From positions 1 to 16,160 of IMG/VR virus record IMGVR_UViG_2512047041_000002: a stretch of 16,160 bases of DNA. One strand, written 5' to 3'. The notes beneath the pieces are model-generated. The model was not told the origin of the DNA and did not search any database. It worked only from the letters and a program-made list of their open reading frames with translations. The stretch is from a virus. Taxonomy: Duplodnaviria > Heunggongvirae > Uroviricota > Caudoviricetes. Positions 8,262-16,160 of this stretch are shown piece by piece. Position 1 is the stretch's first letter, and each line of letters starts with the position of its first letter. The position numbers and the translations under genes are program-made.

Positions 8262-9152
8262 TCAGGCTGCCAGATCATCGTTTCCGATGGAAGCATAATA
8301 AGCTTTTTCTGCTTCTGCCGGAGGAGTATGGCCCAGCCTTTCCAGCAATCGTCGATTGTTATACCAGTCCACCCACGTGAGTGTGGCCAGTTCCACTTCT
8401 GCACGGTTTTTCCAGCTCTTACGGTGTATTACCTCCGCTTTGTAAAGACCATTGATGCTCTCCGCCATCGCGTTGTCATACGAGTCGCCTGTACTTCCTG
8501 TTGATGCCAGTAATCCGGCTTCCTTAAGCCGCTGTGTGTAGGCCAGCGATACATACTGAGAACCTTTATCACTGTGATGGACCGTGCCGGACGGTCGACG
8601 GGCCCATAACGCCTGCTCCAGTGCATCCAGCACGAATGTCGTTTCCATGGACGATGAGACCCGCCACCCCACGATGTATCCGGCAAACACATCAATGATG
8701 AACGCCACATAGACGAAGCCCCGCCATGTGCTGACGTAAGTAAAATCAGCCACCCACAGCTGGTCAGGTCGTTCTGCCACGAACTGACGGTTTACGCGGT
8801 CGCCTGCGGCAACGGCTTTCCGGCTGATGGTCGTACGGACCTTTTTACCCCGGAGAACACCGGCAAGTCCCATAACCGCCATGAGACGTGCCACAGTGCA
8901 TCTGGCCACTCTGATACCTTCCCGTAACAACTGACGCCAGACTTTACGCACACCGTATACCTTGTGATTTTCATCGTATACGCGCTGTATCTCTTTCTTC
9001 AGCCAGTCATCGCGCTGCGCACGGGCACTGCGTTTATCCGGATGATGTCGCTGTTGCTGACAGTGGTAATACGTTGACGGGGCAATATGCAGTTCGCTGC
9101 ATAGCGGTCCGACCCCGTACTGCTCACGCAGCTTATCCAGCAGTGGCATCAT
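8262..9152 (-). CDS. IS629-like transposase OrfB (296 aa, DDE catalytic domain)
   Basis: IS3-family OrfB-like sequence (…[31 protein letters not shown]…[11 protein letters not shown]…) in the -1 frame relative to orfA. Confidence 0.85.
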
Positions 9153-9475
9153 TTTTTCCAGAGGCGGTCGAACTCCGCCTTCGCAAAATAAGCGGAAGCC
9201 TGGCGAAGGATATCGTTACTGCGGCGCAGTTCACGATTTTCACGTTCCAGCTCTTTCAGACGCTGACGTTCAGCGGTGGTGAGCCCTCCATCACCGCCCC
9301 CGGTATCCCGCTCATGCTGGCGAACCCAGACACGCAGAGTCTCCGGCGTACAGCCAATCTTTGGAGCAATGGAACAAATTGTCGCCCATTGTGAGTCATA
9401 TTCGCCCTGACTTTCCAGAACCATACGGACTGCCCGTTGACGGACTTCGGGGGAAAAACGAGTATTTTTAGTCAT
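9149..9475 (-). CDS. IS629-like transposase OrfA (108 aa, HTH)
   Basis: [30 protein letters not shown]... with C-terminal leucine-zipper-like region; ends in an A6 run (GGAAAAAATGA) at the orfA/orfB overlap. Confidence 0.85.
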
Positions 9476-9622
9476 CCTGTTTACCTCTTTCTCAGGAAGT
9501 TTAGTCTCCAGGATTCCCGGGGCGGTTCATCTCCAGAACTTGGCAGGATTACAAGTTCATACGGAGAACTTGCACGAGCAGCAACAAAGCCACTTCGATA
9601 TGTTGAACAGACAGGGCGATCT

Positions 9623-10030
9623 ATGCCAGCCATTAGCACTCTTGAGAATGGCCTTCATCCAGTTTTAGAGAGCGCATTGTCTGGCGCTTTTAGAACTACT
9701 GGCACTATCGCAGGGTTCTCTGGAGGAGGCGTTATTGGAGCAATAGCGGGTGGCGCTGCAGGTGGGGCAATTGATGCAATGGCAAAAGGAGCGATAGCGA
9801 AATTATCCGCAACTAGAAGCGGTCGTTACGCTATTGAAAAGGCTGTTCAAGAGGCAACAAAGGCAGTTAAGGTTGGGGCAAGTGATGGCGCATTAGCGGC
9901 GGCGGAACGCAGATTTATGGCAAATAAGGCCGCCGTAAAAGCAATACGCGAGGCACTAGGAAACGAAGAGTTCCAGCGTTTAGCAAGAGCTGGAATTGTG
10001 GCATCGCTAAGCGGAATGGCACAGGAGTAA
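9623..10030 (+). CDS. Glycine-zipper protein (135 aa), possible membrane-active/bacteriocin-like; 5' end may be truncated by the IS
   Basis: TIAGFSGGGVIGAIAGGAAGGAIDAMAKGAI GxxxG-repeat segment followed by Ala/Lys-rich amphipathic helices; weak RBS at the first ATG and the frame stays open back to the IS boundary. Confidence 0.4.
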   Translation: MPAISTLENGLHPVLESALSGAFRTTGTIAGFSGGGVIGAIAGGAAGGAIDAMAKGAIAKLSATRSGRYAIEKAVQEATKAVKVGASDGALAAAERRFMANKAAVKAIREALGNEEFQRLARAGIVASLSGMAQE

Positions 10031-10360
10031 TTAGTCATCCATGGATGGATTGAGCTTATCTCGTGTTGATGTGGCAATTTTCCCAACATTTTTCAACCAA
10101 GATTTTAAGAAGGATATGTCGTCCTTAATATCATGAATATCCTCATTCTTTATACGATCAACCTTATCCTCTAAGCTCTCTATAGAACGCTCAATGCTAG
10201 ACAGAGAGATTTTTAAGTCCCCTTGCTCACGTTCCAGTGAGGATTTGAGAGCACAATATTCGTTTTCTAGAATTCCTATTTTTTTTGTTAGAGAGTGCAT
10301 TCGATACTCATACACCAAACCAGAAACGACTAATGCAGCCAACAGAAACCATTCAAGCAC
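10031..10360 (-). CDS. Membrane-anchored coiled-coil protein (about 110 aa, GTG start)
   Basis: GTG at 10358..10360 preceded by AAGGAGG; N-terminal hydrophobic helix LEWFLLAALVVSGLVYEY followed by heptad-like SLEREQGDLKISLSSIERSIESLEDKVDRIK; stop abuts the convergent glycine-zipper stop (TAATTA). Confidence 0.5.
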   Translation of the reverse strand: MLEWFLLAALVVSGLVYEYRMHSLTKKIGILENEYCALKSSLEREQGDLKISLSSIERSIESLEDKVDRIKNEDIHDIKDDISFLKSWLKNVGKIATSTRDKLNPSMDD

Positions 10361-10390
10361 ACCAACCTCCTTAGTTTTGAGCAGGATACC

Positions 10391-10756
10391 ATGAAAAAAG
10401 TTAACATTGGAAACGTACCAAAGATGCTCGTTCCGCTCTTTGAGAGCGGTACAATTGTGTGTTGTAGAGACTTTCCAGAATGGCAACGCCTGCATCAAAA
10501 ACTTGGCGTTGACGTGCAGGACTCGGATGCCAACGGAGCGTCTCATACAATGAGCAGCGAGAATGGTGTTTTGCATGTGATAGGTGTGTTCAATGGCAAA
10601 CTATCTACTATTGCCCATGAGTGCGCTCACATGGCATTCGATATCTGCTCAAGGGTCGGTGTTGATGTTGAACCAGGAAGAGCCAATGAGACTTACTGCT
10701 ACTTAATGAGCAGGCTTGTTGAGTTCTGCGAGCGACATATCAAAAAGCCGGAGTGA
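10391..10756 (+). CDS. Small HExxH-motif protein (121 aa), possible ImmA/IrrE-like metallopeptidase-fold protein
   Basis: ATG at 10391 with AGGA 4 nt upstream; motif TIAHECAHMAFD (HExxH) in the C-terminal half; two Cys pairs. Assignment by motif only. Confidence 0.45.
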   Translation: MKKVNIGNVPKMLVPLFESGTIVCCRDFPEWQRLHQKLGVDVQDSDANGASHTMSSENGVLHVIGVFNGKLSTIAHECAHMAFDICSRVGVDVEPGRANETYCYLMSRLVEFCERHIKKPE

Positions 10757-10764
10757 CCCGGCTT
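10745..10764. terminator. Stem-loop between convergent genes (possible bidirectional terminator)
   Basis: AAGCCGG-agtgac-CCGGCTT overlapping the HExxH gene stop; flanked by A-run on one side and T-rich sequence on the other. Confidence 0.3.
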
Positions 10765-10769
10765 GATTA

Positions 10770-10949
10770 TTACTTTTTGCTGTCTGGAGTTCGCTTATCC
10801 AATACCCAGCCATGACCTGGCTTTGTTGTTGGTGGAAGCCTTTCGTTGTCCTTGACGGTGGCAAAATTGTCTTTCTTACCGCCGCGTGGGCCAACTTCTT
10901 GGTATATTCCGCCGTTTTTTCCTGTGTTTTCACCTGGTTTTTTCGCCAT
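10770..10949 (-). CDS. Small Gly/Lys-rich hydrophilic protein (59 aa)
   Basis: ATG at 10947..10949 with GAGGT Shine-Dalgarno; MAKKPGENTGKNGGIYQEVGPRGGKKDNFATVKDNERLPPTTKPGHGWVLDKRTPDSKK; TTGACT -35-like hexamer upstream. Confidence 0.5.
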   Translation of the reverse strand: MAKKPGENTGKNGGIYQEVGPRGGKKDNFATVKDNERLPPTTKPGHGWVLDKRTPDSKK

Positions 10950-11039
10950 GATATACCTCAACATGCACCCGTTATTGGGCGATTAAATATTGATCTCATT
11001 TTATGAGTAGTCAATATGGTCCAAAAAAGGTAAAAATTA

Positions 11040-11064
11040 ACCCACCGTCAGGTGGGTTTTTTAT
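11040..11064. terminator. Intrinsic terminator hairpin, likely bidirectional; ends the Mnt-like/ClpP-like operon
   Basis: ACCCACC-gtca-GGTGGGT followed by TTTTTTAT on the plus strand and by TTAATTTTTACC on the minus strand; 24 nt beyond the ClpP-like stop. Confidence 0.6.
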
Positions 11065-11087
11065 AAGGAGTAATCATGATTTACCCA

Positions 11088-11624
11088 TCAAACAACCCAC
11101 CAGTTTGCCTGATTGGATGCCAGCCTTGCAGTTTTTATGGAATTAATTATGCCATGCTCAAGAGCCTTGTTAGCATCCAAAATGGTCGAGTCTGCTATCA
11201 GGGATGCCCACCTAATATGGGTTCCGATGTCGATATTGAACGTCTCAACGAAGCGATCAAGATCGTTATCGAGGCATTTCCCGTACTCTCTCAATCTGGC
11301 ATGGTCGGCGGCTGGGGAGGCAAAGCACCATAATAGAGGATGTAACAGGAATCTTGATAATGGGTTTGCGAAACGTTCTGAGCCAGCCAGGAAAACGATA
11401 TTAGCTATGGATTCAACATTGCTTATGTTGTGAGTTCTAACGGTAACAGGGAGTGACTTAAGAAAGTTATACGCAGTAAAGCCAGCGGCAGTTTCCCCTC
11501 CCTGACTTGATATATGGATATTTAATTCAGTTGCGCCTTGAGATAATGCGGTGAGACAGTGGTTCTGAAGTTGCCCAACAGTGGCAGTGTTAACGGGGCA
11601 TAAGAAATGAATTGTGTGCAGCAT
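11088..11624 (-). CDS. ClpP-fold (S14-family-like) serine peptidase homologue (178 aa), non-structural context
   Basis: By-eye alignment to E. coli ClpP blocks: ISSQGGETAAGFTAYNFL vs INSPGGVITAGMSIYDTM; ESIANIVFLAGSERFANPLSRFLLHP vs [29 protein letters not shown] (Ser and His aligned); C-terminal ALEHGIINSI vs AVEYGLVDSIL. Start ATG overlaps the Mnt-like stop (TAATG). Confidence 0.6.
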   Translation of the reverse strand: MLHTIHFLCPVNTATVGQLQNHCLTALSQGATELNIHISSQGGETAAGFTAYNFLKSLPVTVRTHNISNVESIANIVFLAGSERFANPLSRFLLHPLLWCFASPAADHARLREYGKCLDNDLDRFVETFNIDIGTHIRWASLIADSTILDANKALEHGIINSIKTARLASNQANWWVV

Positions 11625-11872
11625 TATTTTTCATCCTTAGCATACATGGTCTTTAGCGTCTCAAGTAGCGCCTCTTTGAATTTATCAGCTTCTTGGTTAG
11701 CGAATCCTTCAAGTGAGCGAGAGCCATCAAGATTATCAACATGTTTTTGAAGGATAAGCACGATCTCTGAGTTCATTGATCTGCCGTTTTTATCCGCTTC
11801 TTGCTGAATGCGTTTCTTTAAATAGTCTGGAATCCTAATCCCCAATGGACTGATATCTCTTGCACCTTTCAT
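11624..11872 (-). CDS. Mnt-like ribbon-helix-helix repressor (82 aa)
   Basis: ATG at 11870..11872 with GAGGAG Shine-Dalgarno; MKGARDISPLGIRIPDYLKKRIQQEADKNGRSMNSEIV... shows the RHH pattern of P22 Mnt (NGRSMNSE) plus a C-terminal extension; divergent from the Arc-like gene. Confidence 0.75.
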   Translation of the reverse strand: MKGARDISPLGIRIPDYLKKRIQQEADKNGRSMNSEIVLILQKHVDNLDGSRSLEGFANQEADKFKEALLETLKTMYAKDEK

Positions 11873-11894
11873 TTCTCCTCCTGCACGCTGTGCG

Positions 11895-11967
11895 TAGCTA
11901 CACAGTGTAGGCAAAAAATTTTTGACTTTAAATAAACACGGTGTAGTATTTAGTTATCACGGTGTAG
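11895..11967. promoter_or_regulatory. immI divergent promoter/operator region
   Basis: Perfect palindrome CTACAC-A-GTGTAG (11898..11910); two direct copies of CACGGTGTAG (11937..11946, 11958..11967) 21 bp apart; TTGACT (11922..11927) with TAGTAT 16 bp downstream as a candidate rightward promoter overlapping the repeats. Confidence 0.55.
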
Positions 11968-11981
11968 CAAGTGAGGTGGAA

Positions 11982-12122
11982 ATGAAAGTTAGAGACATCG
12001 CTCCATTAGGGATTCGTATCCCGCCAGAGATTAAAGAAAAATTGAAGGAAAAGGCTAAGGAGGAGGGCAGGTCTTTAAATTCAGAAATAGTGAAGCGTCT
12101 TATTCGCAGCCTAAAAAGTTGA
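11982..12122 (+). CDS. Arc-like ribbon-helix-helix repressor (46 aa)
   Basis: ATG at 11982 with GAGGTGG Shine-Dalgarno; [46 protein letters not shown]; the RHH strand [11 protein letters not shown] is nearly identical to the Mnt-like protein; the 66-aa track ORF is an upstream extension. Confidence 0.7.
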
Positions 12123-12170
12123 AGCCCCAACTGCTGGAACAGTCGGGGCTTCGGTATCAACAAATCAGAT
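12113..12170 (-). ncRNA. Candidate sar-like antisense RNA opposing the antirepressor RBS (hypothetical)
   Basis: Minus-strand TTGACT (reverse complement of 12200..12205) and AATAAT (12175..12180) with a 19-bp spacer; downstream a 12-bp imperfect hairpin (12121..12152) followed on the minus strand by AACTTTTTAG. Confidence 0.25.
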
Positions 12171-12183
12171 AGGAATTATTGAT

Positions 12184-13113
12184 ATGACAAGTTTAGCAAA
12201 GTCAACATTAAATTGCACTAACAGCATCACCATTTCAGACGTCAAGATTCATATGGATTCAGAGGGGCGTTACTCGCTTAATGACCTGCACAAGGCATCA
12301 GGTAAAGAGCGTCGTCATGAGCCTGCGGCGTGGCTGCGACTCGAACAAACCAATGAGTTAGTTCAAGAAATTCTAAATACACAGATGTGTGTATTTAAAA
12401 ATGGCGATAACTTTAATTCTTCAGAATCGCAGATTAAGAAGCCAATGGACTCTAAGAAGGGTCGCTACGGAGGCACCTACGTGTGCAAGGAGCTTGTTTA
12501 CTCCTACGCCATGTGGATTAGCGCAGCCTTTGCGCTGAAGGTTATCCGTGCATATGACGCAATGGTTACTGCCACACAAGAGAGGAAAGCTATTGGCGGT
12601 AAAACTTCAGTAGCTGAACGCACACCGCTACGAGATGCAGTAAACATGCTGGTAGGAAAGAAAGGACTTCGCTATGACGATGCATACAATATGGTTCATC
12701 AGCGTTTTGGTATTGACAGCATTGATGAACTTTCAATTGAACAAATCCCGCTGGCCGTAGAGTACATCCACAGGGTAGTGCTTGAAGGTGAGTTCATCGG
12801 CAAACAAGAGAAGAAAACCAACGAGCTTTCTGCAAAAGAAGCAAACAGCCTTGTATGGTTATGGGATTATGCCAACCGCTCACAGGCATTATTCCGCGAA
12901 CTGTATCCGGCATTAAAACAAATTCAATCGAACTATTCCGGCAGATGTCATGACTGCGGTTATGAGTTCTCCCGTATTATCGATATGGCGAGAGATGTTT
13001 TAATCAACCATACACGAGATGTTGATATTAATGAGCCAGACGGACCAACGAATCTTTCCGCATGGATGAGACTTAAGAATAAAGAATTACCTCCTTCAGT
13101 ACATAACTACTGA
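12184..13113 (+). CDS. Antirepressor with N-terminal KilA-N domain (309 aa), Ant-like
   Basis: Position directly after the Arc-like gene as in P22 immI; N-terminal region ([25 protein letters not shown]...[23 protein letters not shown]) resembles KilA-N; AGGA RBS. Confidence 0.65.
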
Positions 13114-13213: not shown

Positions 13214-15130
13214 ATGAGAGACATTACAGCCAATGTGATCGTATCGATGCCTTCGCAACTCTTCACTATGGCGCGTTCTTTTAAAGCCGTAGCTAATGGC
13301 AAAATTTATATCGGTAAAATTGACACTGATCCTGTAAATCCAGAAAACCAGATTCAGGTCTATGTGGAGAATGAAGACGGTTCTCACGTTCCTGTTTCGC
13401 AACCAATAATCATTAACGCTGCTGGATATCCTGTATATAACGGACAGATTGCCAAATTCGTTACCGTGCAAGGCCATTCTATGGCTGTTTATGATGCGTA
13501 TGGTGCGCAGCAGTTCTATTTTCCTAATGTGCTGAAGTATGACCCTGATCAACTACGGCAGCAATTAGAAGACCCAGATGGAGCGAATAAATACCCAAAA
13601 CTTCAGATAGCAAGATGGAGAGACAGTTATGATGTAAGAGGTTGGGGGGCTATTGGTGATGGTGTTCATGATGATACATCAGCTCTATCAGAATTACTTT
13701 CTGTTGCAACAGGTGGTGAAAAGATAGATGGGCGAGGGCTTACTTTTAAAGTATCAACTCTTCCAGATGTCAGTCGATTTAAAAATGCTCGTTTTTTATT
13801 TGAGAGAATACCGGGTCAGCCTCTTTTTTATGCTTCTGAAGATTTTATCCAGGGAGAGTTATTTAAAATTACAGATACACCGTGGTACAACGCCTGGACG
13901 CAGGATAAAATGTTTGTATATGACAATGTCATCTATGCGCCTTTTATGGCTGGAGACCGCCATGGTGTAAATAACCTCCATGTTGCATGGGTTCGCTCAG
14001 GAGATGACGGGAAGACCTGGACAACGCCGGAATGGCTTACAGATTTACATGAAAACTATCCCACAGTTAACTATCACTGCATGAGTATGGGGGTTGTCAG
14101 AAATCGCCTTTTTGCTGTAATTGAGACGCGGACCGTGAGAGGAAATAAACTGCAGGTTGCAGAGTTGTGGGATCGCCCAATGAGTCGCAGCCTTCGCGTT
14201 TATGGTGGTATAACGAAAGCAGCAAATCAGCAAGTCGCTTATATTCGCATTACTGATCACGGATTATTTGCTGGTGATTTTGTCAACTTCTCAAACTCTG
14301 GTGTTACAGATGTTACCGGGAATATGACGGTGACTACTGTTATTGATAAAAATACCTTTACAGTTACGACGCAAAATACCCAGGATGTGGATCAGAATAA
14401 CGAGGGTAGATACTGGAGTTTTGGCACATCATTTCACTCGTCACCATGGAGAAAAACCAGTCTTGGAACTATTCCTTCTTTTGTTGACGGAAGCACTCCT
14501 GTTACTGAGATTCACAGTTTTGCGACGATTAGCGATAACAGTTTTGCTGTTGGCTACCATAATGGTGATATTGGTCCACGCGAGCTTGGGATACTCTATT
14601 TCTCTGATGCTTTCGGTTCTCCTGGTAGCTTTGTTCGCAGACGCATACCTGCAGAATATGAGGCGAATGCATCTGAGCCATGTGTAAAATATTATGATGG
14701 CATTCTGTATCTGACGACCAGGGGGACATTAAGTACTCAACCCGGTAGTTCATTGCACAGAAGCTCTGATTTAGGTACATCATGGAATTCTCTTCGCTTC
14801 CCAAATAATGTTCATCACTCAAACCTTCCTTTTGCCAAAGTTGGCGATGAGCTGGTTATTTTTGGCAGTGAGCGCGCATTTGGTGAGTGGGAAGGAGGAG
14901 AACCTGATAACCGTTATGCAGGAAATTATCCAAGAACATTTATGACCAGAGTTAACGTCAATGAGTGGAGTCTGGATAATGTAGAGTGGGTTAATGTTAC
15001 TGATCAGATTTATCAGGGCGGAATAGTTAACTCTGCGGTTGGTGTTGGTTCAGTTTGTATCAAAGACAACTGGCTGTACTACATTTTCGGTGGGGAAGAC
15101 TTTTCTAAACCCATGGAGCATAGGGGATAA
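13214..15130 (+). CDS. Tailspike: P22-like head-binding N-terminal domain plus glycosidase-type receptor-binding domain with Asp-box (BNR) motifs; likely the 5' part of a frameshifted longer gene
   Basis: First ~115 aa ([11 protein letters not shown]...[38 protein letters not shown]...[15 protein letters not shown]...NVLKYDPDQ) closely resemble the P22 gp9 N-terminus as I recall it; [14 protein letters not shown] motif; two Asp-boxes SGDDGKTW and SSDLGTSW. Confidence 0.8.
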
Positions 15131-16160
15131 CAACAGAAAATATCCTTATGTTCACGATGGTCACCCGGCTGATTTGTATTGTTTCAGGGTGAAAATTAAA
15201 CAGGAAGAATTTGTTTCAAGGGATTTTGTCTACGGAGCCACTCCTAACAGAACGCTTCCTACTTTTATGTCGACGTCAGGCGTGAGGACGGTTCCTGTAC
15301 CCGTTGATTTCACAGATGATGTTGCCGTCCAGTCACTGACTGTCCATGCAGGTACATCAGGACAAGTTCGCGCGGAAGTCAAACTTGAGGGTAATTACGC
15401 CATTATTGCGAAGAAAGTACCGTCTGATGATGTTACCGCTCAGAGATTAATCGTTAGCGGCGGTGAAACAACGTCTTCAGCAGATGGTGCAATGATAACG
15501 TTGCATGGTTCCAGAAGCAGTACTCCACGTCGCGCGGTATATAACGCACTCGAACATCTTTTTGAGAACGGAGATGTTAAACCTTATCTTGATAATGTAA
15601 ATGCTCTTGGTGGTCCGGGAAACAGGTTCTCGATAGTTTATCTTGGCTCCAATCCTGTGGTTACCAGTGACGGAACATTAAAGACAGAGCCGGTCTCTCC
15701 TGACGAAGCATTGCTGGATGCCTGGGGTGACGTCAGGTATATCGCTTATAAATGGCTGAACGCTGTCGCTATAAAGGGGGAAGAAGGGGCGAGGATACAT
15801 CATGGTGTAATCGCGCAGCAACTTCGTGATGTTCTTATTTCTCACGGACTCATGGAAGAAGAAAGCACAACATGCCGCTATGCCTTTCTTTGCTATGACG
15901 ATTATCCCGCAGTATATGATGACGTCATTACTGGCCAAAGGGAAATGCCGCTGACTGATAATGACGGGAGCATCATTGTTGATGAGGATGATAATCCAGT
16001 GATGGTAATAGAAGACATCATTGAGCGCGTTGAAATAACGCCAGCAGGATCTAGATGGGGGGTCAGACCTGATCTCTTATTCTATATCGAGGCAGCATGG
16101 CAGCGCAGAGAAATGGATAAGATAAAAGCTAGGTTAGACTTAATAGAAGGGAAGCACTAA
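15039..16160 (+). CDS. Tailspike C-terminal region with S74-type intramolecular chaperone domain signature; probably continues 13214..15130 in another frame
   Basis: Frame open from 15027, overlapping the end of the upstream ORF; contains TSDGTLK (Ser-x4-Lys spacing as I recall for the autocleavage site of such domains) and [11 protein letters not shown] motif; track start is a TTG with no RBS, so an independent start is doubtful. Confidence 0.55.

Follow-up and report, generated by a model that had tools for sequence, protein, structure and literature searches.

hkcC of P22 and its relatives, an accessory gene whose product is probably a very small zinc-dependent protease of the lytic phase

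The stretch of DNA analysed here (the window; 16,160 nucleotides of IMG/VR record IMGVR_UViG_2512047041_000002) carries a P22-like prophage of the CUS-3 type from Escherichia coli, and the subject of this report is one small gene within it, hkcC. The hkcC coding sequence occupies positions 10391..10756 on the plus strand, begins with an ATG that lies 4 nt after an AGGA ribosome-binding site read from the sequence (10383..10386, plus strand), and specifies a protein of 121 amino acids (13.5 kDa, isoelectric point (pI) 6.3) belonging to PHROG 1365. An earlier sequence-only reading of this DNA had singled out the open reading frame (ORF) for its HExxH motif, HECAH, and both are as it described them, the motif being residues 76-80 within the context TIAHECAHMAFD (residues 73-84) that it quoted. 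The ORF is hkcC, a true accessory gene of P22-like phages: at the protein level it shares 99% identity with HkcC of coliphage HK620 (AAK28904) and with an ORF of P22, and in all three it lies in the ‘ant moron’ with orf59a on one side, sieA or hkcB on the other, and the same terminator. The window copy differs in having C24, a position that is F24 in some IMG/VR alleles and close homologues, and in lying in a defective prophage. HkcC is probably a tiny protease that depends on zinc and is synthesised in the lytic phase.

P22 is among the best-studied phages, yet its reference annotation omits hkcC. In records BK000583 and NC_002371 the ORF (BK000583 13861-14223), which sits between the sieA promoter and the mnt terminator, carries no annotation, and expression analyses built on these records will overlook it. 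The gene is given together with 59a as one of two genes of unknown function of the P22 ‘ant moron’ (Villafane et al. 2008, PMC2629481), and PHROGs lists no function for phrog_1365, which HkcC matches over its full length (residues 1-121, E=9.6e-39). To this known gene of unknown function the present analysis adds a family-wide catalytic signature, a cassette with orf59a and an expression logic. Pid, the P22 ORFan that acts on the host dgo operon, was considered and set aside, as it belongs to a separate locus (orf25-orf80) and is not hkcC.

The ORF might be suspected of being no gene at all but a chance reading frame between the sieA/hkcB promoter and the mnt/orf59a terminator, given that the P22 records omit it, that an opposite-strand promoter covers its first 31 nt, and that HExxH alone is at chance level. 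Two such motifs occur in the six-frame stop-free segments of at least 60 amino acids in the window (11,250 amino acids), and the second, HETCH at 8880 (plus strand), lies in a non-coding frame antisense to an insertion sequence (IS) transposase, so HExxH by itself is to be expected by chance in a sequence of this size; what exceeds chance, as judged by sequence comparison, is the conservation of the family and not HExxH itself. A scan of IMG/VR viral contigs gave only copies 98-99% identical to hkcC (80 copies, 37 alleles). All 80 are intact, and 29 distinct synonymous changes stand against 5 distinct nonsynonymous ones, a ratio of nonsynonymous to synonymous polymorphism (pN/pS) of about 0.05, which indicates that the gene is under strong purifying selection. 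Hundreds of clusters contain homologues, down to about 25% identity, that keep the motif; the predicted structure is confident, and the gene has an annotation in HK620 and an entry for P22 in Villafane et al. 2008. The conservation data already refute a chance origin, to which we give virtually no credence.

At E<=1e-3 a profile search of 1.8 billion cluster representatives recovered 547 relatives, and at the stricter E<=1e-10 it recovered 150; with few exceptions they are 110-130 amino acids long. Every one of the 136 aligned relatives matches phrog_1365. The family is large and phage-wide, with at least 547 clusters at 50% identity and a near-invariant zincin signature; poor conservation, which the sequence-only reading had named as grounds for giving up a metallopeptidase, is the opposite of what was found. 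Conservation was counted over 137 family representatives, most of them 25-40% identical to the query. H76 is present in all 137, E77, H80 and E100 in 136 each, Y104 in 132, C103 in 113 and N99 in 100; G49, G90 and Y104 are each conserved in at least 90%, and the HkcC clade also has invariant C25, C78 and C86. The codons for H76-E77-C78-A79-H80 (10616..10630, plus strand) would specify two zinc ligands and the catalytic base, and those for N99-E100-T-Y-C103-Y104 (10685..10702, plus strand) a putative third zinc ligand, E100, along with the near-invariant Y104. H80 and E100 are 20 residues apart in HkcC, and 18-19 residues intervene in 125 of the 137. No third His is conserved across the 137, E100 being the only other invariant acidic residue; a His within the 7 residues before E100 is found in only about 15, at varying positions. 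Lys-rich C-terminal tails were rejected as a family trait, as only about 6 of the 137 have them.

Several observations on the distribution of the family stand apart from these counts. Some database proteins consist of a truncated HkcC fused to other sequence and mark deletions in decaying prophages. The P22-like phages UAB_Phi20, ST160, SE1 and SW-70 have two HkcC matches each, and a family member about 40% identical (epsilon34 gp70; Orf129 of ST64T and phage L) is flanked by the lysis genes and the terminase gene. Some of the genomes with two matches may carry two HkcC paralogues in different accessory slots.

Two AlphaFold runs, with 18 and with 136 sequences, gave the same order of elements at predicted local distance difference test (pLDDT) scores of 88 and 94 and predicted template modelling (pTM) scores of 0.82 and 0.86, respectively. 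The elements are strands 11-13 and 21-25, helix 28-37, a hairpin (49-56/59-66), helix 71-88 and helix 100-117; HExxH sits on the predicted helix 71-88 and E100 opens the predicted helix 100-117. As modelled, this order (strand-helix-hairpin-helix-helix) is that of a mini-zincin. The sequence-only reading had proposed a minimal zincin and had looked to structure prediction for the fold and for a third zinc ligand. The models agree as to element order, although fold searches of the PDB returned no zincin, and E100 is the candidate ligand, being an invariant acidic residue at a fixed distance after H80 and at the start of the next predicted helix. Structure searches were made with the first model (pLDDT 88), which among the predicted viral structures of BFVD has 25 neighbours at E<1e-3, some of them named SprT-like or Metalloprotease. 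The conserved residues and the models together make a Glu-type minimal zincin the best reading of HkcC, and one that we regard as fairly probable.

The weak sequence matches of HkcC go nearly all to zincins. Thermolysin and neutral protease align across the HExxH region, and further weak matches are to myroilysin, BMP1 and peptidyl-Lys metalloendopeptidase. Among the sub-threshold Pfam neighbours of the 136 relatives, SprT-like (PF10263) is the commonest (19 of 136, best E=1e-4), its matches spanning the HExxH helix to the NE motif; others are DUF5700, DUF4344, DA1-like, M48 and Reprolysin_2. The SprT-like/WLM/SPRTN group is the closest curated sequence neighbour of HkcC, below threshold, and the order of the N-terminal elements can be aligned: a deep HkcC alignment compared by hhalign with that of the E. 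coli SprT family (20 sequences, at least 74% identity) pairs 81 columns that take in the whole N-terminal subdomain, at a probability of 9.8% and a pairwise E of 0.0033, the SprT alignment being shallow. HkcC might accordingly be imagined as a protease of the SprT/Wss1/SPRTN type, activated on DNA and clearing proteins that are stuck on phage DNA or bind it tightly in replication or packaging. BFVD neighbours named SprT-like (E 3e-5, template modelling (TM) score 0.65) would fit, as would the Lys-rich tails of the few relatives that have them and of mEp515 gp64, and Wss1 itself has been described as structurally a minigluzincin (PMC5557861). Homologues directly upstream of a DNA polymerase gene (SU503) and beside terminase genes point the same way, although weakly, since these are common accessory-gene slots. 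PF10263 has a cut-off of 25.6 bits; the query has no match, and example relatives score 15.7 and 12 bits. The third-ligand His of SprT (H95-G-K-E-W in E. coli) is replaced by E100, and no such HG-x-E-F/W motif is conserved among the 137 representatives; HkcC also lacks the zinc ribbon (PF17283) of SprT homologues and has no basic tail. We judge a SprT-type role unlikely.

The HExxH...E signature, at nearly equal spacing, is shared by HkcC with the thermolysin-type gluzincins (M4) and the M1 aminopeptidases. Thermolysin binds zinc through H142, H146 and E166, with a spacing of 20 from H146 to E166, and phmmer aligns HkcC 67-113 with thermolysin 133-179 across the HExxH region at E-values of 0.1-0.7. 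The M4 and M1 enzymes are, however, longer than 300 amino acids and have large C-terminal domains, and thermolysin has E-x-x-x-D where HkcC has E-x-x-x-Y. The mini-zincins resemble HkcC in their small mixed sheet, backing helix, HExxH helix and next helix with the third ligand, the structural details of proabylysin used in this comparison being general background. No structural similarity of HkcC to proabylysin or projannalysin was found. Mini-zincins of about 110 amino acids with a three-stranded sheet are documented; like HkcC, the mini-Glu-zincins proabylysin and projannalysin (provisional MEROPS M95) and Acel_2062/DUF1025 are single domains of about 105-120 amino acids, and in the mini-Glu-zincins the third ligand is likewise a Glu (PMC3890501).

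The sequence-only reading had gone further, seeing in the HECAH context a likeness to ImmA/IrrE proteins (M78) and suggesting an anti-repressor protease. On that view HkcC would cleave Mnt, Arc or C2 and so promote induction, and its gene does have mnt, arc and ant nearby in the ‘ant moron’. ImmA/IrrE enzymes are HExxH + Glu zincins, and like HkcC they are found on mobile elements. They also have an extra helical domain, which HkcC, at 121 amino acids, would lack. When ten relatives were scanned one at a time, one gave a PF06114 match at E=0.099, whereas the query has none, and the three BFVD neighbours named IrrE are poor structural matches (E 0.02-0.1, TM 0.19-0.42). No helix-turn-helix (HTH) repressor gene that might serve as a partner adjoins hkcC or its homologues in any context examined, the neighbours being hkcB or sieA and orf59a, tail genes, lysis/terminase genes or a DNA polymerase gene. 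HK620 retains hkcC while mnt and ant are only remnants there, and distant homologues occur in virulent T7-like phages, so an anti-repressor role tied to immI is unlikely; close homologues moreover lie in siphovirus tail modules. Context has already largely refuted such a role, which we hold to be very improbable. The minimal zincin thus survives from the sequence-only reading, with HExxH on a predicted helix, E100, the weak zincin matches and the SprT-like BFVD neighbours behind it, and the ImmA/IrrE flavour does not. HkcC represents an uncharacterised family in a known superfamily, and is not demonstrably a SprT-like, M95 or ImmA/IrrE member.

The gene is co-oriented with gene 16 and the tailspike gene, and with a late or tail operon everywhere examined. 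Distant members lie between lysis and terminase genes (epsilon34 gp70, mEp515 gp64) or elsewhere next to a terminase gene, and in the virulent T7-like Klebsiella podovirus SU503 a homologue immediately precedes the gene for DNA polymerase. The sequence ahead of hkcC shows no relationship from one context to another, and hkcC therefore has no conserved promoter; a promoter of its own was considered and dropped, the upstream promoter-like sites being at chance level and not conserved between contexts. The lack of a conserved promoter and the co-orientation with the late operon would suggest late lytic synthesis by read-through from P-late, and we infer that HkcC is a lytic-phase cytoplasmic protein.

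Upstream of hkcC, on the minus strand, lies hkcB (10031..10360), which encodes a protein of 109 amino acids with an N-terminal membrane helix and a coiled coil, agrees with the hkcB annotation of HK620 and matches phrog_5962 at E=2e-61. It starts, as annotated in HK620, with GTG at 10360 after AAGGAGG, leaving a 30-bp gap to hkcC; a 181-amino-acid ORF that reaches back to 10576 and overlaps hkcC is an over-extension of hkcB. The spacing of about 30 bp between start codons had been given correctly in the sequence-only reading, which nonetheless called the genes face to face when they are divergent, that is, back to back. hkcB fills the slot held by sieA in P22 and stands beside hkcC in 11 of 84 near-identical loci. 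The equivalent of the sieA promoter, annotated in P22 at 13861-13891 of BK000583, is at 10391..10421 (minus strand) in the window, embedded in the opening 31 nt of hkcC, where it would presumably serve to transcribe hkcB. Over these 31 nt the window does not differ from P22, and the similarity of the two sequences begins about 38 nt upstream of the hkcC ATG. Although hkcB and P22 sieA are unrelated genes, they have the same start region (GTG and AAGGAGG) and promoter sequence, and the mosaic joint lies about 38 nt upstream of the hkcC ATG (window 10353-10421; stretch 2463-2531 of the P22 locus).

At the other end, both strands having been scanned, a hairpin terminator (10745..10764) is common to hkcC and the convergent orf59a. 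It spans the hkcC stop codon, and its stem also encodes the C-terminal K-P-E of HkcC. The HK620 record names this hairpin tORF59A and treats it as bidirectional, and the P22 record names it the mnt terminator; compensatory changes preserve it across eight contexts. The gene orf59a, or hkcD (10770..10949, minus strand; phrog_3202), begins 13 nt past the hkcC stop and is the small basic protein gene with which convergence had been noted from the sequence; its product has 59 amino acids and a pI of 9.9. Its true start is the ATG at 10949 and not that at 10964, and it has a weak YjzC-like match (Pfam YjzC, E=0.0017) below the cut-off. Orf59a is 76-98% identical in P22 and three siphovirus prophages. 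A promoter scan placed a sigma-70-type promoter, TTGACT-17-AATATT, at 10986-11014 (minus strand), with a small hairpin downstream of it at 10966-10981 (minus strand), the two elements together spanning 10966..11014. The TTGA and AATATT are conserved in all eight aligned contexts, from P22-like podovirus and siphovirus prophages, and the small hairpin folds in most of them, with compensatory stem changes; it could be a 5′-untranslated-region element or an operator. We take orf59a to be a moron gene on the opposite strand that is expressed independently and probably constitutively.

hkcC travels with orf59a as a cassette. The convergent neighbour is present beside all six full-length hkcC homologues of 46-63% identity and in 73 of the 84 near-identical loci. 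Klebsiella oxytoca, Rosenbergiella and a metagenomic contig have homologues of 57-62% identity, which occupy siphovirus tail modules at a point flanked by the tail chaperone and tape-measure genes; each is directly followed by a convergent 59-amino-acid gene 76-81% identical to orf59a; the pairing is also found in Xenorhabdus, Proteus and a Pasteurellaceae genome. An obligate link was considered and dropped, however. In the other 11 of the 84 loci a convergent gene for a hydrophobic membrane protein of about 70 amino acids (MISAILSVLLASLFIGVV...) replaces orf59a, with the breakpoint at the terminator hairpin, and in the contexts examined homologues of 42% identity or less never have orf59a.

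As a whole, the explanation towards which we lean is that hkcC is a P22-like accessory gene for a soluble, single-domain mini-zincin of about 13.5 kDa, made late and located in the cytoplasm. HkcC would be a gluzincin-like metallopeptidase of PHROG 1365 with SprT-like as its nearest curated neighbour. Helix 71-88 would contribute two ligands of a single zinc ion, H76 and H80, and the beginning of helix 100-117 the third, E100; E77 would serve as general base and polarise the water bound to the metal. The β-hairpin 49-66, which runs into the HExxH helix, would supply a peptide-binding edge strand (strand 59-66), and Y104, one helical turn past E100, may steady the site or the transition state. 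In an intact phage hkcC would be expressed late by read-through from P-late, and the cytoplasmic HkcC would act on a particular protein. The most concrete, if speculative, candidate for the target would tie its function to the convergent partner orf59a, which has a separate promoter of constitutive type; other speculative targets are proteins of the host or of a defence system and, in the fashion of SprT, proteins bound to DNA.

The tie to orf59a can be drawn out into a mobile two-gene switch, in which Orf59a is constitutive in the lysogen and HkcC proteolytically neutralises Orf59a or its host factor. Orf59a would then be useful in the lysogen, for example in exclusion or defence, but harmful to the phage's own lytic growth; HkcC would be made only with late read-through, and the same transcript, antisense to orf59a, would shut it off. 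We regard the switch as unlikely; if true, it would represent a protease-based self-immunity or anti-defence module in the model phage P22 that was never assigned. More generally, should the target be a host defence protein or a prophage-expressed factor, HkcC would offer a protease mechanism for counter-defence or for the transition from lysogeny to lysis; should it be something else, HkcC would be one more small zincin.

A number of results weigh against a working late protease. The query passes no Pfam, NCBIfam or PADLOC threshold and gives only noise such as lantibiotic matches, and a second homologue search with a deep alignment found no match with a Pfam domain attributable to the HkcC region. 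Foldseek against the PDB gave nothing below E=0.1, so that comparison with solved structures does not recognise a zincin fold, and the hhalign probability with SprT is low. Late expression is inferred from orientation only, and in the window the late promoter region is deleted. Literature searches on hkcC yielded no functional, expression or phenotype data, and no functional study turned up in those on orf59a, on SprT-like phage proteases or on phage proteases with HExxH. The prototype mini-Glu-zincin is without detectable activity (PMC3890501), so a mini-zincin fold guarantees no working protease. C103, near E100, could take a fourth coordination position and make the site structural, and the clade-invariant C25, C78 and C86 could likewise close the coordination shell. 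These last points, together with the missing zincin in the PDB searches and a very small domain with little space for a substrate cleft, favour a different role for the His-Glu-His-Glu set, as a structural or regulatory metal site or the centre of a non-peptidase hydrolase in a protein that binds a partner such as Orf59a or a host protein. E77, however, is no metal ligand in zincins and is kept in 136 of the 137 representatives down to about 25% identity, the pattern of a catalytic base, which favours catalysis over mere metal binding, and the weak matches go to active peptidase families. A non-peptidase role is thus a minority possibility, and a protease remains our preferred reading of HkcC.

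The prophage in the window is defective and truncated by an IS. From the left end, the window holds a host pectinesterase-like gene, then integrase, excisionase and early-left genes, and then an IS3-family element on the minus strand (8262-9475; orfA 9149-9475, orfB 8262-9152), directly adjoined by a 3′ fragment of ejection gene 16 that ends at 10030. After this fragment come hkcB, hkcC, orf59a, a ClpP-like gene, a Mnt-like repressor gene, arc, ant and an endosialidase tailspike gene. The IS fuses the early-left region (cIII in the matching E. coli N32 record) to the truncated gene 16, which means that the prophage has lost its immunity, replication, lysis and head genes along with the late promoter. 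With the late promoter and the late activator deleted, hkcC may be intact here but silent. Positions 9476-12200 match E. coli N32, a cerebrospinal-fluid isolate, at 100%.

Two further features of the window lie outside the hkcC cassette. The ClpP-like gene (178 amino acids, 11088-11624, minus strand; Pfam CLP_protease, E=2e-11) has orf59a on one side and the Mnt-like repressor gene on the other, its start codon (11622-11624) overlapping the stop codon of the repressor gene (11624-11626); it is not at the equivalent place in P22 or HK620 and is unusual cargo for an ant moron. The K1-capsule-specific endosialidase tailspike (13214-16160, plus strand) is broken into overlapping ORFs at 13214-15130 and 15039-16160, which suggests a frameshift and a further sign of prophage decay.

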